Shown here piece after piece: positions 3,206 to 9,553 of a DNA stretch of 64,000 nt (positions are counted from its first letter, which is position 1; every line of letters starts with the position of its first letter). The translations under genes and the position numbers were made by a program. The notes beneath the pieces are model-generated. The model did no database searches, had not been told where the DNA came from, and was given only the letters and a program-made list of their open reading frames with translations. Origin of the DNA: Candidatus Woesearchaeota archaeon (lineage in GTDB: Archaea; Nanobdellota; Nanobdellia; Woesearchaeales; GW2011-AR15); NCBI GenBank assembly GCA_038874655.1, contig JAVZBY010000001.1, forward strand, positions 202,971 through 266,970, in the 5' to 3' direction.

Positions 3206-4222
3206 TTATCTGTTTTCTATAATTTTTTTAAATTTTTCACCTAGTATTTTTGTTGTAGAGTATCCTTCTAGTAATTTTACAAGATATATTTTTCCACCAT
3301 ACTTTTTTACTGTTGGAGCCTCAATACAATTTTCACCATACTCAGAACCATTTACATGTATATCTGGTTTTATTATTTCAAGCATTTTTATTGGGGTAGT
3401 TTCATTAAATATTGTCACATAATCTACTTCATCAAAATTTGCAATCATTTTAGCTCTTTGATAGTCATTATTTATTGGCCTGTTAGGACCTTTATTTTTT
3501 TTAACAGAGTTGTCAGAATTAATGCCAACAATAAGAATATCGCCTTGCTCTTTTGCTTCTTTAATTATTTTTTCATGACCTTTATGTAGTATGTCAAATG
3601 TGCCATTGAGAGTCACAATTATTTTTTTTTCTTTTCTTAATTTTTTAATTAAATTAGAAAGTTCTTCTCTTTTTACAATTTTTTCATATTTATCAAAGAG
3701 TATGTAATCTATAGCTTGTTTGAAATTAGCTGCAACATAATCTGGAAATAATTCTTTTGCTTTTTCTAAGTTTTTAACACCTTGACCAGTTAAAAGATAA
3801 ATAGATTTACAATTATTATTTTTTGCTAATATTACATCAATATAATGATCTCCGATGACAAAAGAATTAGAAAGGTTTAAATTATATTCTTTTTCAGCTA
3901 TTTTTAATGCATCTGTATAAGGTTTTCTGCAACTACATTTTGTTTCTGGTTTATGTGGGCAAAAAAATATTTTTTCTATACTAATATCTTCTTTTTTAAG
4001 TTCTTGAAGCAATTTTTCATTAAAATTATGCATATCTTTTTCTGTAAAAAAGCCTCTTTCAATTCCGGATTGGTTAGTTATTATAAAAAGTTTATAGTTT
4101 TTTACTCTTTTTAGATTTTCAATAACATCAGGATATATTTTTAAGTCTTCTATTTTATAAGTATAACCTTTATCTTCATTTAAAGTACCATCTCTATCAA
4201 GAAAAATAGCTCTATTTTTCAT
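3206..4222 (-). CDS. Fusion of GmhB-type heptose-1,7-bisphosphate phosphatase (HAD IIIA) and RfaE domain II heptose-1-phosphate nucleotidyltransferase
   Basis: N-term FLDRDGTLN, TNQSGI, CPH...CSCRKP, GD; C-term NGTFDILHKGH, GINSDNSV, GPNRPIN, GYSTT. Confidence 0.88.
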   Translation of the reverse strand: MKNRAIFLDRDGTLNEDKGYTYKIEDLKIYPDVIENLKRVKNYKLFIITNQSGIERGFFTEKDMHNFNEKLLQELKKEDISIEKIFFCPHKPETKCSCRKPYTDALKIAEKEYNLNLSNSFVIGDHYIDVILAKNNNCKSIYLLTGQGVKNLEKAKELFPDYVAANFKQAIDYILFDKYEKIVKREELSNLIKKLRKEKKIIVTLNGTFDILHKGHEKIIKEAKEQGDILIVGINSDNSVKKNKGPNRPINNDYQRAKMIANFDEVDYVTIFNETTPIKMLEIIKPDIHVNGSEYGENCIEAPTVKKYGGKIYLVKLLEGYSTTKILGEKFKKIIENR

Positions 4223-4224
4223 TT

Positions 4225-5205
4225 TTATTGTCGATTTTCAATAATTTTTTGTAATTCTTCTAATAATACAGGGCTTGTGCCAAATTTGCCTACTTTTATA
4301 CCTGCAGCATAATTTGCAAGTATTACAGATTCTTTTAAAGAAGCCCCAGAGCATAAAGATAAAGCTAAAGTAGCAATTACAGTGTCACCTGCACCAGAAA
4401 CATCATAAACCTCTTTTGCCATTGTTGGAATATAGAAGTCATTGTTATTTTTTTCAAATAAATGCATGCCATTTTCACCTAAGGTTATTACAACATTACA
4501 TTTTAAGTCATTAACAAGTTTTTTACCTGCTTTTTTTATTTTTTTTTGATTATCTATTTTAAAATTAACCATTTCTTCAGATTCTTTTTTATTAGGTGTT
4601 ATTAAAGTACATCCTTTATAAAATGATTTATGTTTTGGTTTAGGATCAACAAGAATAGGAATTTTTTTATTTGTTGCATATGTTATTAGTTCTTTTGTTA
4701 ATTCTTTTGTTATTGTACCTTTAGCATAATCTGATATAATTATTGCATCAAAATTATTTATTTCTTTTATTTTTTCTATTATCTTTTTATGAAATTTTTT
4801 TTCTATATAGTTGTCATCTTCATAATCTATTCTAATTAATTGTTGATTTTGAGAAACAACCCTAATTTTTTGTATTGTTTTTTTTTTAGAGTCTATAAAT
4901 AGATTAGAATTAATTTTTTTTAATTTTAATAATTCTAGCAATATATCTTTTTCTTTATCATCACCTACAACACCAAATAAGAAAGCATTACCACTTAAAC
5001 TTGCTATATTGTTTGCTGTATTAGCAGCACCTCCTAAAGAATATTTTTCTTTTTCGATTTTTATAATAGGTACAGGGGCTTCAGGAGAAATGCGTTCAAC
5101 TTTTCCAAATATATATTTATCAAGCATTATATCTCCTATAATAAGGATATTTTTTTCATTGAATCTATTTAAATATAAATTAAGAGCATCCATTTTTTTA
5201 TTCAT
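4225..5205 (-). CDS. hldA: D-glycero-beta-D-manno-heptose-7-phosphate kinase (RfaE domain I, PfkB family)
   Basis: GDIMLDKY, RISPEAPVP, LGGAANTA, SDYAKG, TPNKKE, DVSGAGDTV. Confidence 0.92.
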   Translation of the reverse strand: MNKKMDALNLYLNRFNEKNILIIGDIMLDKYIFGKVERISPEAPVPIIKIEKEKYSLGGAANTANNIASLSGNAFLFGVVGDDKEKDILLELLKLKKINSNLFIDSKKKTIQKIRVVSQNQQLIRIDYEDDNYIEKKFHKKIIEKIKEINNFDAIIISDYAKGTITKELTKELITYATNKKIPILVDPKPKHKSFYKGCTLITPNKKESEEMVNFKIDNQKKIKKAGKKLVNDLKCNVVITLGENGMHLFEKNNNDFYIPTMAKEVYDVSGAGDTVIATLALSLCSGASLKESVILANYAAGIKVGKFGTSPVLLEELQKIIENRQ

Positions 5206-5209
5206 ACTT

Positions 5210-6097
5210 TTAAATCATTTTGACATATTCTTTTATAGCATCTATTAGTTTGTATTTAGCTTGAAATCTAAGAAATTTTTTTGCTCTTTTAGTATCTGCT
5301 TGTGTATTTGCTTGATAAGTTTTTTTTTCATATGGCAGATCTATATAAATGGGTTTTAGATCTGTTCCTAAAGCTGAATTTATTAATGAAACTAGCTCAT
5401 TAAAACTAGTGCTTATGCCTGTCCCAACATTATATATGCCAGATTTTGCTTCTAGTGCTTTTATGTTGGCTAAAACACAATCTTTTACATAAATATGATC
5501 TCTTTTTTGTTCTCCCCATTTAAATATTTTAGGATTTTCTCCTCTTTTCATCATTTTTGTTAGATGATAAATCATAGATGCAGCTCTACCTTTGTATTCT
5601 TCACCAGGACCAAATACATTAAAATATCTTAATCCAATAATGTGCATATCAGAAAAATGATGACTTGCCATTTCGTCCATTATTAATTTTGATTTTGCAT
5701 AAGCACTTAATATTTCTTTAGGTTGATCTTCTTCTTGAGGTGCTTTTGTATTCCCATAAAGACTAGCAGATGAGGCATAAATAAGTTTTGATCTATCTTT
5801 TTTTGCTTTTTTTAAAACCCATTCAAAACCATCTAAATTTTGTTTTAATAACTCTTCATCATTAGGATATCTAGGATCTGTTATAGCAGCTAAATGAAAG
5901 ATTACATCAAATTTTTCTTTTAGATCTGGTTTTTTAGATATATCATATTCTATTATTTTTCCTTTAAAATTTTTAATATTGTTTTTATGTCCTGTAGAAA
6001 AATTATCAATTATTACAACATAATTTTTTTTTTCTTCAAGATATTTTGCTAGATTAGAGCCAATAAAGCCAGCGCCACCAGTAATGAGACATCTCAT
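5210..6097 (-). CDS. hldD: ADP-L-glycero-D-manno-heptose 6-epimerase-like NAD-dependent epimerase
   Basis: TGGAGFIGSNL, YASSASLYG, YAKSK, GLRYFNVFGPGEEYKGRAASMI; operon context with heptose kinase. Confidence 0.78.
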   Translation of the reverse strand: MRCLITGGAGFIGSNLAKYLEEKKNYVVIIDNFSTGHKNNIKNFKGKIIEYDISKKPDLKEKFDVIFHLAAITDPRYPNDEELLKQNLDGFEWVLKKAKKDRSKLIYASSASLYGNTKAPQEEDQPKEILSAYAKSKLIMDEMASHHFSDMHIIGLRYFNVFGPGEEYKGRAASMIYHLTKMMKRGENPKIFKWGEQKRDHIYVKDCVLANIKALEAKSGIYNVGTGISTSFNELVSLINSALGTDLKPIYIDLPYEKKTYQANTQADTKRAKKFLRFQAKYKLIDAIKEYVKMI

Positions 6098-6459
6098 TTT
6101 ATATCACTTATGTTTATTTTTGAAAGATCCACTTTTCCAGATAATTCTTCCCTATAGGAATCAGAGTCCTCATGATGTGTTGAAAATTCAATTATTTCAG
6201 AGTCCTCTAATCCAGTAAATCTATGTTTTTGCATTGGCCTTATAAGTTGAGAATCTCCAGGATTCATGATTATTTTTTTATTATCAATTTCTAATAAAAC
6301 TTTTCCTTTATTTATGTAAAAGGTTTCATCTTTTTTTTTATGATAATGCATACTACATCTGTATCCTTTTTTTAGTATTAATATTTTTCCACAATATTCT
6401 CTATTAACAATCCATCTTTCTTCTCCCCATTCTTTTTTAACGATATTTATATATGTCAT
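6094..6459 (-). CDS. Cupin-domain sugar isomerase-like protein
   Basis: KEWGEE, SMHYHKKKDETFY, HRF cupin metal motifs; ATG at 6459 preferred over GTG at 6468. Confidence 0.75.
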   Translation of the reverse strand: MTYINIVKKEWGEERWIVNREYCGKILILKKGYRCSMHYHKKKDETFYINKGKVLLEIDNKKIIMNPGDSQLIRPMQKHRFTGLEDSEIIEFSTHHEDSDSYREELSGKVDLSKINISDIK

Positions 6460-6471
6460 CTTTACCACAAT

Positions 6472-6489
6472 AGTATTACTAATTCATAC
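6472..6489. promoter_or_regulatory. Putative operator box 1 (AGTATTACTAATTCATAC)
   Basis: 15/18 identical to box 2; GTAT...ATAC dyad; lies between TATA-like TTTATAAA (6504-6511) and the heptose operon start. Confidence 0.6.
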
Positions 6490-6503
6490 CAAAATAAAAG
6501 CTA

Positions 6504-6511
6504 TTTATAAA
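6504..6511 (-). promoter_or_regulatory. TATA box candidate for the heptose operon
   Basis: TTTATAAA preceded on the minus strand by an A-run (BRE-like), about 45-50 nt upstream of ATG 6459. Confidence 0.45.
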
Positions 6512-6597
6512 TTTTTTGTTTATGGATTTATTTTTTTTACTCTGTTTAATTTTTTTATTATTTTTAATTATATTTTTTAAATTTTAATAAAATTAAT

Positions 6598-6620
6598 AAA
6601 GTATAACATATTCATACTTT
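6598..6620. promoter_or_regulatory. Putative operator box 2 (AAAGTAT-AACATATTC-ATACTTT)
   Basis: Perfect 7-bp inverted arms with 9-nt spacer, ending just before the ATG of the RHH gene. Confidence 0.6.
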
Positions 6621-6624
6621 TAAT

Positions 6625-7377
6625 ATGAGAAAATCTAAAATAGCTATTTCATTAGATAAGCCTCTTTTAGATATAATTGACAGTAAAGTAGATGGTTCTA
6701 TAATAAGGTCTAGAAGCCAAGCAATTGAATATTATTTAAAAAAAGGATTAGGAAATGATTTTATTGATATTGGAATTATTTTTTTAAAAGGTGAGCATCA
6801 AAAATACTCATTAATGAATTTACAAGGTAAACCTTTGATTTTTCATCAAATTTATTTATTAGAAACTGTTGGAATTAATTTTATTTATCTATTAACCCAA
6901 AATTCTATATATACAAATCAATTAGAAAAATTACTTGCTAAAACAAATGTTAAAATTGTTTTTACAAAAGCAAAAGGGACAGCCGAAGCATTAAATTCAA
7001 TTAGGAATATTTTACACAACAGAGAATTTATTGCTATGAGTGGCGATATATATAATATGTTTGATATTAAAAAAATGGTATTAAAACATAAATCTTATGG
7101 AAAAATAGTTACAATGGGCTTAATATCCAAAAGTGAAATGAGTAAAAGTGGTGCAGTTATTTTAGATGGGGATATTATAATTGATTTTGAAGAGAAGCCA
7201 AAAACTCCAAAATCTAATATAGCTAATGCAGGAATTTATATAATGTCTTCAAGAATTTTTGAATATTTGAATAGAGAAACAATTTCATTAGAAAGAGATG
7301 TTTTTCCAAAATTGGCGAAAAAAGAAGAATTAGTTGGTTTTTTTACTCATGGTGAGTATAAACATATGGAGCAGTGA
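6625..7377 (+). CDS. Ribbon-helix-helix DNA-binding domain fused to a degenerate sugar-phosphate nucleotidyltransferase domain
   Basis: N-term KIAISLDKPLLDIIDSKV...SRSQAIEYYL (CopG/NikR-type RHH); C-term GKPLI, GTAEAL, SGD, FEEKP, NAGIY, SLERDVFPKL; GGxGTR loop absent. Confidence 0.8.
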   Translation: MRKSKIAISLDKPLLDIIDSKVDGSIIRSRSQAIEYYLKKGLGNDFIDIGIIFLKGEHQKYSLMNLQGKPLIFHQIYLLETVGINFIYLLTQNSIYTNQLEKLLAKTNVKIVFTKAKGTAEALNSIRNILHNREFIAMSGDIYNMFDIKKMVLKHKSYGKIVTMGLISKSEMSKSGAVILDGDIIIDFEEKPKTPKSNIANAGIYIMSSRIFEYLNRETISLERDVFPKLAKKEELVGFFTHGEYKHMEQ

Positions 7378-7395: not shown

Positions 7396-8532
7396 ATGGT
7401 AAAGAAAATATTAGAAAAAAAAGAAAAAAACCAAGGAAAAAAAAGAATCTTAGTTTTAAATTTGGTTCCCAATACAGTAGGAGATTCAATTATAATGTTG
7501 CCTATGTTTAAAATTATAAAAAAAAATTTTCCTGATTCTTATTTAGTTGCAACAGGAGATAAAATCACAAAAGAATTATGGCAAAATAATAAAGAGATTG
7601 ATGAAATTATTGTTGTGGATGAATTAGAATATATTGGAAAAAGAGGTTTATTTAAGATTATTAAAGGATATTATTATTTTAAGATGTTTTTTAAATTAAT
7701 TAGAGAGTTTAGATCAAGAAAATTTAATATTTGTTTTATTGCATATCCTAATTTTTTTTTAATGCATCTTATTCCTTTTTTTTCAGGCATAAAAGAAAGA
7801 ATTGGTTTTACATATAAAGGTTCTATTTTTAGTTTTTTATTAACTAAAAAAACACCAAGTAAAATTTTATTTGACGGATATTATGACAGACATATTGTTG
7901 AGTCTTTTTTGGATTTGCTTAGAGTTTATGGATTAACTTTTACTAGCAAAGATAAAATTGTAAAAAGAGAAGTAAAAAAAGAAGACATTATTCTTGTTAA
8001 AGAAAAATTAAGAAAAATGAAAATTCATATTGAAAATAAAATAATAATCTCTTTACACACTTTATCAAAATTAGAAGTAAAAAATTGGCCAGCAATTTAT
8101 TTTAAAGATTTAATTAAACTTTTGGTTATAGAATATAATCCTTTAATTTTTTTATTGGGATCTAGTAAAGAATTTTCTTATAACGAAGAGATAAGAAAAG
8201 TTGCAGAAAACAATGTTTATAATTTATGTGGTATTTTTAGTTTAAATGAAGTAGGAGCAATTTTAAAATTAAGTGATTTATTTATTGGAAATGATTCTGG
8301 ATTAGGGCATTATGCATCAGCAGTTGGTACAAAAACAATATCTATCTTTGGAGCAACAAATCCTAAACAAGCAAAACCAATTGGTCATGGTAAGACAGAA
8401 ATAATATTTAAGAATATTGAGGATAATACTTATGCACATCTTAAAAAGAATGATGCATTATCAGCAATAGAAGCAATGAAAAAAATTAAACCTGAAGAGG
8501 TTTTTGAAGTAGTAAAAAATATTCTAAAATAA
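7396..8532 (+). CDS. Glycosyltransferase family 9 (heptosyltransferase-like)
   Basis: VGDSII, RIGF, KNWP, FIGNDSGLGHYASAVG, IFGAT motifs. Confidence 0.88.
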   Translation: MVKKILEKKEKNQGKKRILVLNLVPNTVGDSIIMLPMFKIIKKNFPDSYLVATGDKITKELWQNNKEIDEIIVVDELEYIGKRGLFKIIKGYYYFKMFFKLIREFRSRKFNICFIAYPNFFLMHLIPFFSGIKERIGFTYKGSIFSFLLTKKTPSKILFDGYYDRHIVESFLDLLRVYGLTFTSKDKIVKREVKKEDIILVKEKLRKMKIHIENKIIISLHTLSKLEVKNWPAIYFKDLIKLLVIEYNPLIFLLGSSKEFSYNEEIRKVAENNVYNLCGIFSLNEVGAILKLSDLFIGNDSGLGHYASAVGTKTISIFGATNPKQAKPIGHGKTEIIFKNIEDNTYAHLKKNDALSAIEAMKKIKPEEVFEVVKNILK

Positions 8533-8587: not shown

Positions 8588-9553
8588 ATGAAAGTATTTA
8601 TTATTGATTTAGTTGGTTGTAAACCATTTGAGATAGGATATCAAATAAAAAAAACATTGGAAAATTTAGGGCATGAAACAAAATCTTTTAATTATAGATT
8701 TTTTAAACTACAACATTTTAAGTTTTCAAATAAACTTTTGAATGAATATATGGTTTTTCAAGCAACAAGATATAAACCAGATTTAGTTTTAGTAAATAAA
8801 GGCGAGTCAATCTTACCTAAAACAATAGAAAAAATTAAAAAAATTGATTGCAAAGCAGTTTCTTGGAATCCTGATGAACCTTTTGGATATTTAGATTCTT
8901 TTAATAGGATTGAAAATGTTTCTGAGTATGATGCGTATTTTACATATGATAAACAATATTTAAATCCTTTGAAAAAATTGAATAAAAATGTTTTTCATTT
9001 GCCTCCAGGAGCAGATCCTTTTGAAGTTCATAAAGAGGTTATGGAACTGGAAAAAAGAAAATTTTCTGCTGATTTATGTTTAGTAGGAACAGCATATAAA
9101 AACAGAATTGAGTTATTATCAAAATTTTCTAATTATAAATTGAAATTAGCAGGTCCAAAATGGGATAAAGCGCCTAAAAAATTAGCAGAGCAAGCACTTC
9201 CAAGAGTTTCTATAAGAGAGATGGTTTCAATGTTTAATGAAAGTAAAATTGTTTTGAATCATTATGGTGAATCAAAATATTTTATTGTGCCTAATCCAAG
9301 AACTTTTGAAATACCAGCATCAAGATCTTTTCAATTAACTAATATGTCTAGAGAAGTAGAAGATTATTTTAAGCCAAATAAAGAGATTGTTGTTTATAAA
9401 GATGAGCAAGAATTTAAGGAATTAGTTGATTATTATTTAGATGATGATCAAGAAAGAAACGAGATAGCACAAAAGGGTTATGAAAGAGTTTTAAAAGAGC
9501 ATACAATGGAAAACAGAATAAAAAAAATGCTAGATGTTTTAGATAAAATATAA
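8588..9553 (+). CDS. CgeB/YkvP-family glycosyltransferase
   Basis: SKIVLN, PNPRTFEIPA, YYLDDDQERNEIAQKGYERVLKEHT. Confidence 0.82.
   Translation: MKVFIIDLVGCKPFEIGYQIKKTLENLGHETKSFNYRFFKLQHFKFSNKLLNEYMVFQATRYKPDLVLVNKGESILPKTIEKIKKIDCKAVSWNPDEPFGYLDSFNRIENVSEYDAYFTYDKQYLNPLKKLNKNVFHLPPGADPFEVHKEVMELEKRKFSADLCLVGTAYKNRIELLSKFSNYKLKLAGPKWDKAPKKLAEQALPRVSIREMVSMFNESKIVLNHYGESKYFIVPNPRTFEIPASRSFQLTNMSREVEDYFKPNKEIVVYKDEQEFKELVDYYLDDDQERNEIAQKGYERVLKEHTMENRIKKMLDVLDKI

Follow-up and report, generated by a model that had tools for sequence, protein, structure and literature searches.

A ribbon-helix-helix protein with a degenerate sugar-nucleotidyltransferase domain as a candidate repressor of a divergent heptose operon in a woesearchaeal genome

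What is a DNA-binding head doing on a sugar-nucleotidyltransferase fold whose catalytic loop has gone? The question is raised by a 250-amino-acid (aa) protein encoded at positions 6625-7377 of a 64,000-nt stretch of DNA, referred to here as the window (contig JAVZBY010000001.1, positions 202,971-266,970 of the forward strand, assembly GCA_038874655.1), from a Candidatus Woesearchaeota archaeon with a genome of 1,263,075 bp that is 97.3% complete. The gene is divergent from a set of genes that we take to be the ADP-heptose route. Judging from sequence comparison, structure prediction and gene context, the protein is probably a NikR-like local repressor whose pseudo-enzyme domain would sense a heptose nucleotide or a heptose phosphate. 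The gene and its two domains are as follows.

6625..7377, plus strand: gene with ATG start for a fusion of a ribbon-helix-helix (RHH) domain to an NTP_transferase-like domain, 250 aa; candidate repressor of the heptose operon
6625..6756, plus strand: RHH head, residues 1-44, from RHH_1, an AlphaFold2 (AF2) model, structure neighbours and invariant columns
6769..7374, plus strand: sugar-1-phosphate nucleotidyltransferase-like (GT-A/Rossmann-like) domain, residues 49-250, candidate ligand sensor, from PF00483, AF2 and Foldseek

The initial annotation of this DNA had described an RHH domain joined to an NTP_transferase fold, and had made its reading depend on the N-terminus modelling as RHH. The fusion is confirmed. 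In Pfam, the full-length protein matches PF00483 (NTP_transferase; residues 65-232 on profile positions 27-211 of 245, E 2.8e-19) and RHH_1 (residues 8-40, E 7.8e-4, 19.8 bits against a cut-off of 20.5) and no other family. The N-terminal 50 aa searched alone score 23.1 bits, over the RHH_1 cut-off, and this profile also recognises 33 of 40 family N-termini at E ≤ 0.01. All NCBIfam matches to sugar-1-phosphate nucleotidyltransferases are below threshold, the best being Arch_glmU (74 bits against a cut-off of 292), and the nikR model is matched faintly over residues 5-43 only (E 0.087, 13.1 bits against 175). In the AF2 model of the full-length monomer (26-sequence alignment), the predicted local distance difference test score (pLDDT) is above 90 across most of residues 49-250. 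Foldseek matches this body to GDP-mannose pyrophosphorylases, namely Arabidopsis VTC1 and the human GMPPA/GMPPB complex (7d72, 7d74), at E ~1e-18 and with template modelling (TM) scores of 0.70-0.73, normalised to the query; RmlA and ST0452 come next. Modelled on their own (40-sequence alignment), residues 1-50 reach a pLDDT of 80.6 and have a strand-helix-helix form, extended over residues 1-11 with helices at 12-20 and 30-40.

When the head was compared with 48,161 representative solved chains, the nearest neighbours were nearly all RHH proteins: the best 33 rows are nearly all of this kind, at Z 4.4-3.2 over 39-44 aligned residues. The N-terminal domain of MazE9 (Z 4.4) is tied at the top, and NikR is among the top matches (Helicobacter pylori 2ca9_A, Z 4.4; Escherichia coli 1q5v_A, Z 4.3, 31% identity). 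Further neighbours are ArtA, TraM, the RHH domain of PutA (2rbf_A, Z 4.0), AmrZ, Arc, omega and ParD. Antitoxins often carry RHH heads and account for several of these nearest structures, as would suit a toxin-antitoxin-like module of an RHH antitoxin and a nucleotidyltransferase toxin. We rejected that reading and give it practically no credence: the body has the PF00483 sugar-nucleotidyltransferase fold rather than a Pol-beta-type (NTP_transf_2-like) one, the two parts form a single polypeptide, and a sugar context surrounds the gene in 58 of 60 loci (see below). A homodimer prediction with two full-length copies (26-sequence alignment) scored 0.02 against a mark of 0.42 with controls that were not folded, a score that speaks neither for dimerisation nor against it.

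In nucleotidyltransferases, the G-x-G-T-R-x(n)-P-K signature binds the triphosphate and serves catalysis, and the aspartate of the W-x-D motif binds metal. Both were said to be lost from this protein when the gene was first annotated, and both are indeed replaced.

6781..6801, plus strand: FLKGEHQ, residues 53-59, the shortened replacement for the G-G-x-G-T-R…P-K loop, from the family and profile alignments
7351..7368, plus strand: GEYKHM, residues 243-248, in place of G-x-W-x-D-x-G, from the family alignment, with invariant H247 at the Asp position

The first 26 positions of the Pfam NTP_transferase profile, which hold the G-G-x-G-T-R loop, are unmatched, and the profile alignment to solved enzymes begins at family residue ~63-65, the equivalent of enzyme residue ~26-28. 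Fourteen residues (49-62, IGIIFLKGEHQKYSL) occupy the place of ~24 catalytic-loop residues in GDP-mannose pyrophosphorylases. The arginine of GxGTR and the lysine of PK are both gone, and H247 is invariant (26 of 26 aligned sequences) where enzymes carry the metal-binding Asp; RHH fusions of the canonical and intermediate kinds show W-x-D at this place. Three other NTP_transferase genes in the host genome are matched from profile position 1-2 and have GxGTR…PK. We infer that the C-terminal domain is a pseudo-enzyme, with catalysis predicted to be lost. By homology, K55, H58, Q59 and H247 would sit where enzymes hold phosphates and metal.

The motifs of the substrate pocket are kept: GTAEAL (residues 118-123), SGD (139-141), FEEKP (188-192) and NAGIY (201-205), the last three of which align, in the family profile, with the same motifs in VTC1 and GMPPB. 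These four, FLKGEHQ and GEYKHM, all of them quoted in the initial annotation, each occur in the translation at the place given there. The family profile matches solved nucleotidyltransferases at E 1e-18 to 1e-13, including the heptose-1-phosphate guanylyltransferase HddC (5xhw, 6.5e-15), and it also matches the non-catalytic fold members eIF2B epsilon, eIF2B gamma and GMPPA (GMPPA at E 1.5e-8). Invariant residues in the body, across the 26 aligned sequences, are H58, Q59, T91, Q92, G118, S139-G-D141, E190, N201, G203, Y205, G243, Y245 and H247, and K55 and K191 are nearly so. In the head, K3, K5, A7, I8, S9 and R28-S-R-S-Q-A33 are invariant; K3, K5, A7 and S9 are probably the DNA-facing residues of the strand.

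Could the degenerate fold be a mere oligomerisation scaffold, spacing two RHH dimers in a repressor that needs no ligand? A passage of PMC9168903 describes how enzymes with this fold use various interfaces to assemble into dimers and larger oligomers, and the candidate operators presented below need two or three RHH dimers in 10-bp register. Against this stand T91, Q92, G118, D141, E190, N201, G203 and Y205, invariant in a family that is otherwise ~50% identical, which is hard to explain without ligand binding. We consider a pure scaffold quite improbable; the retention of invariant pocket residues argues for a ligand.

The protein is no one-off. It is a member of a conserved DPANN (Woesearchaeota/Nanoarchaeota) family, with 1343 relatives at E ≤ 1e-3 among 2656 candidates. 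The best 120 of the 1343 are 248-286 aa long and 48-100% identical to the query over 98-100% of its length (the first is the window's own protein), and the named relatives among them come from metagenome-assembled genomes (MAGs) of Woesearchaeota or Nanoarchaeota. Members are publicly named "nucleotidyltransferase family protein", "sugar phosphate nucleotidyltransferase", "mannose-1-phosphate guanylyltransferase" or "hypothetical protein", so that a regulatory role is invisible in annotation.

What would such a protein regulate? The genes on either side suggest an answer.

6094..6459, minus strand: cupin, first gene of the divergent operon, 121-124 aa; the ATG at 6459 is probable from orthologs, and the list of open reading frames (ORFs) has a GTG at 6468
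5210..6097, minus strand: NAD-dependent epimerase, HldD-like, from Pfam
4225..5205, minus strand: PfkB-family sugar kinase, heptose-7-phosphate kinase-like, of the HldA/HldE N-terminal type, from Pfam
3206..4222, minus strand: HAD phosphatase (GmhB-like) fused to a cytidylyltransferase-like adenylyltransferase (HldC-like), from Pfam
7396..8532, plus strand: GT9 heptosyltransferase-family gene, 18 nt past the regulator gene and probably co-transcribed with it, from Pfam
8588..9553, plus strand: Glyco_trans_1_2 (CgeB-like) gene, from Pfam

The cupin, epimerase, PfkB kinase and GmhB-HldC genes span 3206-6468 on the minus strand, and the regulator gene is divergent from them, as had been claimed. 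This layout recurs in related loci, of which we took 80 from public genomes (some of the records are labelled generically "Methanosarcinales"). The upstream sequence is at least 3 kb long in 60 loci, and in 58 of these it carries heptose genes on the opposite strand (kinase in 57, GmhB/HldC in 58); the two exceptions, L005 and L019, have three GT9 genes upstream of the regulator instead. The gene had also been said to head a GT9/CgeB unit. In the window it does, with GT9 and Glyco_trans_1_2 on the plus strand, but the arrangement is specific to the window: a GT9 gene lies downstream of the regulator in 54 of the 66 loci with at least 3 kb of downstream sequence, mostly on the other strand.

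The regulator and the pathway also occur together in genomes, in counts that we give as description only. Among 151 genomes of the order (at least 70% complete, the host genome included and one, G130, flagged unpublished), the regulator is matched in 38 at E ≤ 1e-30 (about a quarter), the heptose kinase in 55 at E ≤ 1e-40, and both in 31; the kinase is found in 24 of the 113 genomes with no regulator match. Close orthologs of the regulator (E < 1e-45) occur in 31 genomes, 28 of which also have the kinase, and in 21 of these 28 the two genes lie at most 5 kb apart on one contig. Three close orthologs are not accompanied by a kinase match (G062, G099, G128), and two of these three matches lie at contig ends. 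With G130 left out, the regulator, the kinase and both are found in 37, 54 and 30 of 150 genomes, and the kinase accompanies 27 of 30 close orthologs.

If the protein is a repressor, operators should lie between it and the divergent operon. Candidate sites were found at both promoters.

6473..6489, unstranded: distal candidate operator GTATTAC-TAA-TTCATAC, past the minus-strand TATA box and ahead of the heptose operon
6504..6511, minus strand: TTTATAAA, TATA-like box of the heptose-operon promoter, by eye and from its position in related loci
6593..6600, plus strand: TTAATAAA, TATA-like box of the regulator promoter, by eye
6601..6617, unstranded: proximal candidate operator GTATAAC-ATA-TTCATAC, directly past the plus-strand TATA-like box and 7 nt before the regulator ATG

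The family loci share an upstream palindrome, GTATGAA-N3-TTCATAC, with 10 bp from one half-site centre to the other. Perfect copies, matching at all 14 bases, are present in 64 of the 80 loci (64 sites in 904,374 bp), and 54 of these sites are within 400 bp upstream of the regulator gene; allowing up to two mismatches raises the numbers to 90 sites in 75 loci, with 75 sites inside this 400-bp stretch. As background, these 80 loci were simulated ten times with a first-order Markov model, which gave, per set, 0 perfect palindromes (64 observed), 0.2 with one mismatch (12 observed) and 5.4 with two (14 observed). In a typical locus, the minus side runs from the start codon of the first gene through ~13 nt with a GGTGA-like element to the palindrome and then, after a few nt, to a TATA box and B recognition element (BRE) of the TTTATAAA/CGAAAG type. 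The plus side follows after a spacer, with the TATA box of the plus promoter, at once a second site, and the regulator ATG. This second site can be a single palindrome, or it can consist of three heptads in 10-bp register, 27 bp in all (for example GTAATAC-TTT-CTACTAC-TTA-TTCATAC). Its final half-site stops 1-10 nt short of the ATG in 50 of 81 sequences, so the regulator mRNA is probably leaderless. Sites between the TATA box and the transcription start occupy the position from which archaeal repressors block initiation. On this sequence evidence, the palindromes at both divergent promoters are the predicted operators of the regulator.

The variant pattern GTATWAC-N3-TTCATAC, allowing at most one mismatch, has two sites in the whole 1.26-Mb genome, both in the 6460-6624 intergenic region. 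Neither the consensus (at most two mismatches) nor the variant pattern gave further targets in the host genome that would point to a wider regulon.

The related loci vary around this plan. The first gene of the divergent operon is either a cupin or a SIS-type GmhA, the latter standing at the cupin's operon position in, for example, L008:6303-6866, L002:5472-6029 and L015:3006-3554. The window cupin matches Cupin_2 and has weak similarity to lyxose/mannose-6-phosphate isomerases, and no SIS_2-type GmhA scores above cut-off in the host genome at its 97.3% completeness; the cupin may take the place of sedoheptulose-7-phosphate isomerase without being homologous to it. Some operon variants are missing the HldD-like epimerase and have instead a 300-308-aa protein (L008:5408-6307 and L004:1537-2460, both minus strand) with either no Pfam match or a faint deoxyhypusine-synthase-like one. 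The operators remain at the divergent promoter where another gene precedes the regulator, for example one for an EamA-family transporter, which lies between the operator-bearing promoter and the regulator at L002:6153-7001 (plus strand) and similarly in L003, L020 and L075. This transporter would be co-regulated and could carry a sugar nucleotide or another metabolite. Within the L005 and L019 subgroup, which is not beside heptose synthesis genes, and in L053, whose upstream sequence is too short to tell, a different upstream element is shared; it ends ...GGTAT[GT]C[AC]AAAG[GT]-ATG and holds one GTATG-type half-site.

We propose that the protein is a one-component transcription regulator whose RHH head would bind palindromic operators of the consensus GTATGAA-N3-TTCATAC. 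Since its half-sites are centred 10 bp from each other, two RHH dimers would be placed on the same side of the double helix. The C-terminal fold, which appears to keep the pocket for base and sugar phosphate and to be without the triphosphate/catalytic loop and one metal-binding aspartate, would be a ligand sensor and probably also an oligomerisation module. At both promoters the operators are placed past the TATA box and ahead of the start codon, so that the most likely mode of action is repression by blocking initiation, rather than activation. The repressed transcripts would be the ADP-heptose operon and the regulator's own transcript, in the window regulator-GT9-GT. The likely ligand is a product or intermediate of the pathway, such as an NDP-heptose (NDP, nucleoside diphosphate) or a heptose phosphate; acting as co-repressor, it would provide end-product feedback. 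The initial annotation had proposed a sensor and feedback of this kind, and our results support that reading in part: in the domain architecture, the losses of catalytic motifs, the recurrent tie to the heptose operon and the palindromes at the two promoters.

Several of our observations weigh against this proposal. The RHH part is poorly modelled in the full-length monomer (pLDDT 50-62 over the first 40 residues in AF2), Foldseek with the 50-residue model of the head has no match at E ≤ 1e-3 (the best is apo-NikR 1q5v_C, E 0.85, 32% identity), and a sequence profile of the RHH part has no significant match among solved structures (the best is the RHH antitoxin Rv0298, E 0.089). The structure-comparison Z of the head is never above 4.4, a low absolute value of the kind that such a short domain leads one to expect; the argument here is the consistency of the neighbour list. 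Both window operators are two bases off the consensus, in the left half-site, and the consensus palindrome with at most two mismatches is no commoner genome-wide than chance (7 observed, 9.0 simulated), so that the identification of the window operators relies on their position and on the uniqueness of the variant in the genome. The regulator is absent from 24 of the 55 kinase-positive genomes and is thus dispensable for the pathway; moreover, related genomes are not independent, and the co-occurrence counts overstate the case. Two further points of this kind, the conservation of the replacement loop and the existence of canonical RHH fusions, concern the body and are taken up below.

The modest structural scores of the head would also fit a protein that is not the regulator at all, the palindromes being bound by another factor, the N-terminal extension having a role away from DNA, and the gene being simply a conserved member of heptose clusters. 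Three observations speak against this. No other DNA-binding gene is present among the genes identified in the related loci, where not all of the remaining ORFs were scanned. The palindrome is confined to the regulator locus in the genome. Lastly, where the RHH strand of a paralog differs, so does the operator at that paralog's locus. The host genome has five PF00483 matches, and two of these besides the window gene also bear an RHH head. The second paralog, at C1:188741-189541 on the minus strand (equivalent to L081:2745-3542), is 266 aa long, lies ~14 kb before the window, and is divergent from a UDP-glucose/GDP-mannose dehydrogenase gene. It has no Pfam RHH_1 match at E ≤ 0.01, and its head was read from the alignment to RHH fusions. 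Its strand is K-I-S-I-T-I, where the family of the window protein, family 1, has K-I-A-I-S-L, and its loop is SGGSEEN. Tandem heptads, ATCTTAC-N3/4-ATCCTAC, are found in 25 of 30 loci of this paralog (111,360 bp) and in 0 of the 80 family-1 loci; in the host genome they occur once, in the second paralog's own intergenic region. Conversely, the family-1 palindrome is found in 0 of the 30 second-paralog loci. That different DNA-facing residues go with different operators at their own loci is expected if the heads bind the sites, and we regard it as very unlikely that the palindromes belong to another factor.

Is the body truly dead? The replacement loop KGEHQ and H247 are themselves conserved, as strongly as the retained pocket residues, which fits either a ligand site or an altered catalytic site. 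Fully canonical RHH fusions also exist. In a census of 151 sequences (150 representatives at 50% identity and the query), a crude motif test recognised 116 full-length RHH fusions; the other 35 either had no RHH by regular expression or were shorter than 230 aa. Both GxGxR and PK are kept in 8 of the 116, three of which also keep WxD, so that an RHH fusion alone is no sign of a dead enzyme. (L)AGG is kept and GxGxR lost in 48 fusions, and GG is missing altogether from 59, of which 33 end in a [YFH]xH C-terminus like that of the window protein; GxGxR is lost and WxD kept in 30. The distant members that bear names derive from MAGs of Diapherotrites and Micrarchaeota, where their annotation is as nucleotidyltransferases only; one of them, P0207 from a Diapherotrites MAG, is an RHH fusion with fully canonical catalytic motifs. 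In the host itself, the third paralog (C13:740-1570, plus strand) joins an RHH head (strand R-L-T-I-T-L) to a canonical catalytic site (GGKGTRFRP…PK, WFDTG) and is, by its sequence, a candidate active enzyme-repressor. It is followed by a 445-aa ORF that is phosphomannomutase-like in appearance, and direct heptads, ATCATAC-ATT-TTCATAC, lie upstream of it.

These fusions, together with the conserved loop, bring to mind a bifunctional enzyme-repressor in the manner of BirA, NadR or PutA, in which the window protein would bind operators and also, through K55, H58, Q59 and H247, catalyse nucleotidyl transfer or some related reaction with a heptose phosphate or NDP-heptose as substrate. We think this unlikely for the window protein, whose signature loop is ~10 residues shorter and has lost both of its phosphate-binding residues, and which is also without one metal-binding Asp. 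The operon, besides, already encodes the adenylyltransferase of the pathway (the HldC-like domain), and the gene's absence from many kinase-positive genomes, noted above, speaks in the same direction. A pseudo-enzyme receptor with a repressor head is the reading that we prefer.

The three RHH-headed paralogs of the host differ in the state of the catalytic site: one is canonical (beside the phosphomannomutase-like gene), one half-degenerate (facing the UDP-glucose dehydrogenase gene) and one fully degenerate (facing the ADP-heptose operon). We tentatively suggest, while holding it somewhat less likely than its opposite, that DPANN archaea have an entire class of one-component regulators made by joining an RHH head directly to a sugar-nucleotidyltransferase domain, be it active or dead, each paralog having its own operator and its own nucleotide-sugar pathway. 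The window protein would then be the end point of an enzyme-to-receptor transition and the first prokaryotic transcription factor sensing NDP-heptose or heptose phosphate. It is rare for a single protein family to offer a graded series that begins with what looks like an active enzyme-repressor and ends with a pseudo-enzyme receptor, and this makes the family a natural case study of how enzymes become sensors.

To our knowledge, gene regulation in DPANN archaea is almost unexplored, and so is archaeal control of the nucleotide-sugar supply for surface glycans. The literature that we searched, which covers few subscription journals, yielded no description of an RHH-nucleotidyltransferase regulator. 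The family offers a complete regulatory unit for study: besides the regulator, there are two predicted operators, the operon that they would control and a small number of candidate ligands. NDP-heptoses are innate-immune agonists made across kingdoms, according to a passage of a commentary (PMC11461863), and a protein that binds them specifically could become a biosensor.

How does the protein compare with known systems? It shares its fold and the pocket motifs SGD, EKP and NAGIY with RmlA, GMPPB/VTC1, HddC and ST0452, and differs from them in having no G-x-G-T-R…P-K, a His for the W-x-D aspartate, and an added RHH head. With MetJ, Arc, CopG and omega it shares the RHH fold and operators of short repeats in helical register that take several dimers, omega acting on 7-bp heptads (2bnw). 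Those are single-domain proteins, and MetJ binds its co-repressor on the RHH domain itself. PutA, BirA and NadR resemble the window protein in having a metabolic-enzyme domain and a DNA-binding domain in one chain and in controlling genes of the same pathway, and the DNA-binding head of PutA is likewise an RHH. The enzymes in these three proteins are catalytically active, whereas the window protein is without the signature catalytic residues; the canonical paralog at C13:740-1570 is the closer analogue.

By analogy, NikR is near in plan: it too has an N-terminal RHH head and a C-terminal domain for ligand binding and oligomerisation in one chain, and is a local repressor. The C-terminal domain of NikR is an ACT-like domain that binds nickel and forms the tetramer. 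The window protein has an NTP_transferase domain and no ACT-like nickel domain, and the DNA-facing residues of its strand are K, A and S. The E. coli NikR operator, as a passage of PMC7055735 gives it, is GTATGA-N16-TCATAC. The same hexamers, GTATGA and TCATAC, make up the candidate operator of the window family, at a spacing of N5 rather than N16. With both the C-terminal domain and the half-site spacing different, the window protein is not a NikR.

For the body, the counterpart is GMPPA, with KONJAC. Passages of PMC11228364 and PMC9168903 describe GMPPA as a paralog with this fold that has no catalytic role of its own, binds GDP-mannose and regulates GMPPB. These proteins have the same fold as the window protein and a degenerate catalytic site, and theirs has been retained, according to PMC11228364, as a sensor for the NDP-sugar of the pathway. 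Unlike GMPPA, the window protein ends at residue 250, after the Rossmann-like domain, and has no beta-helix domain. It has a DNA-binding head instead, and would act on transcription.

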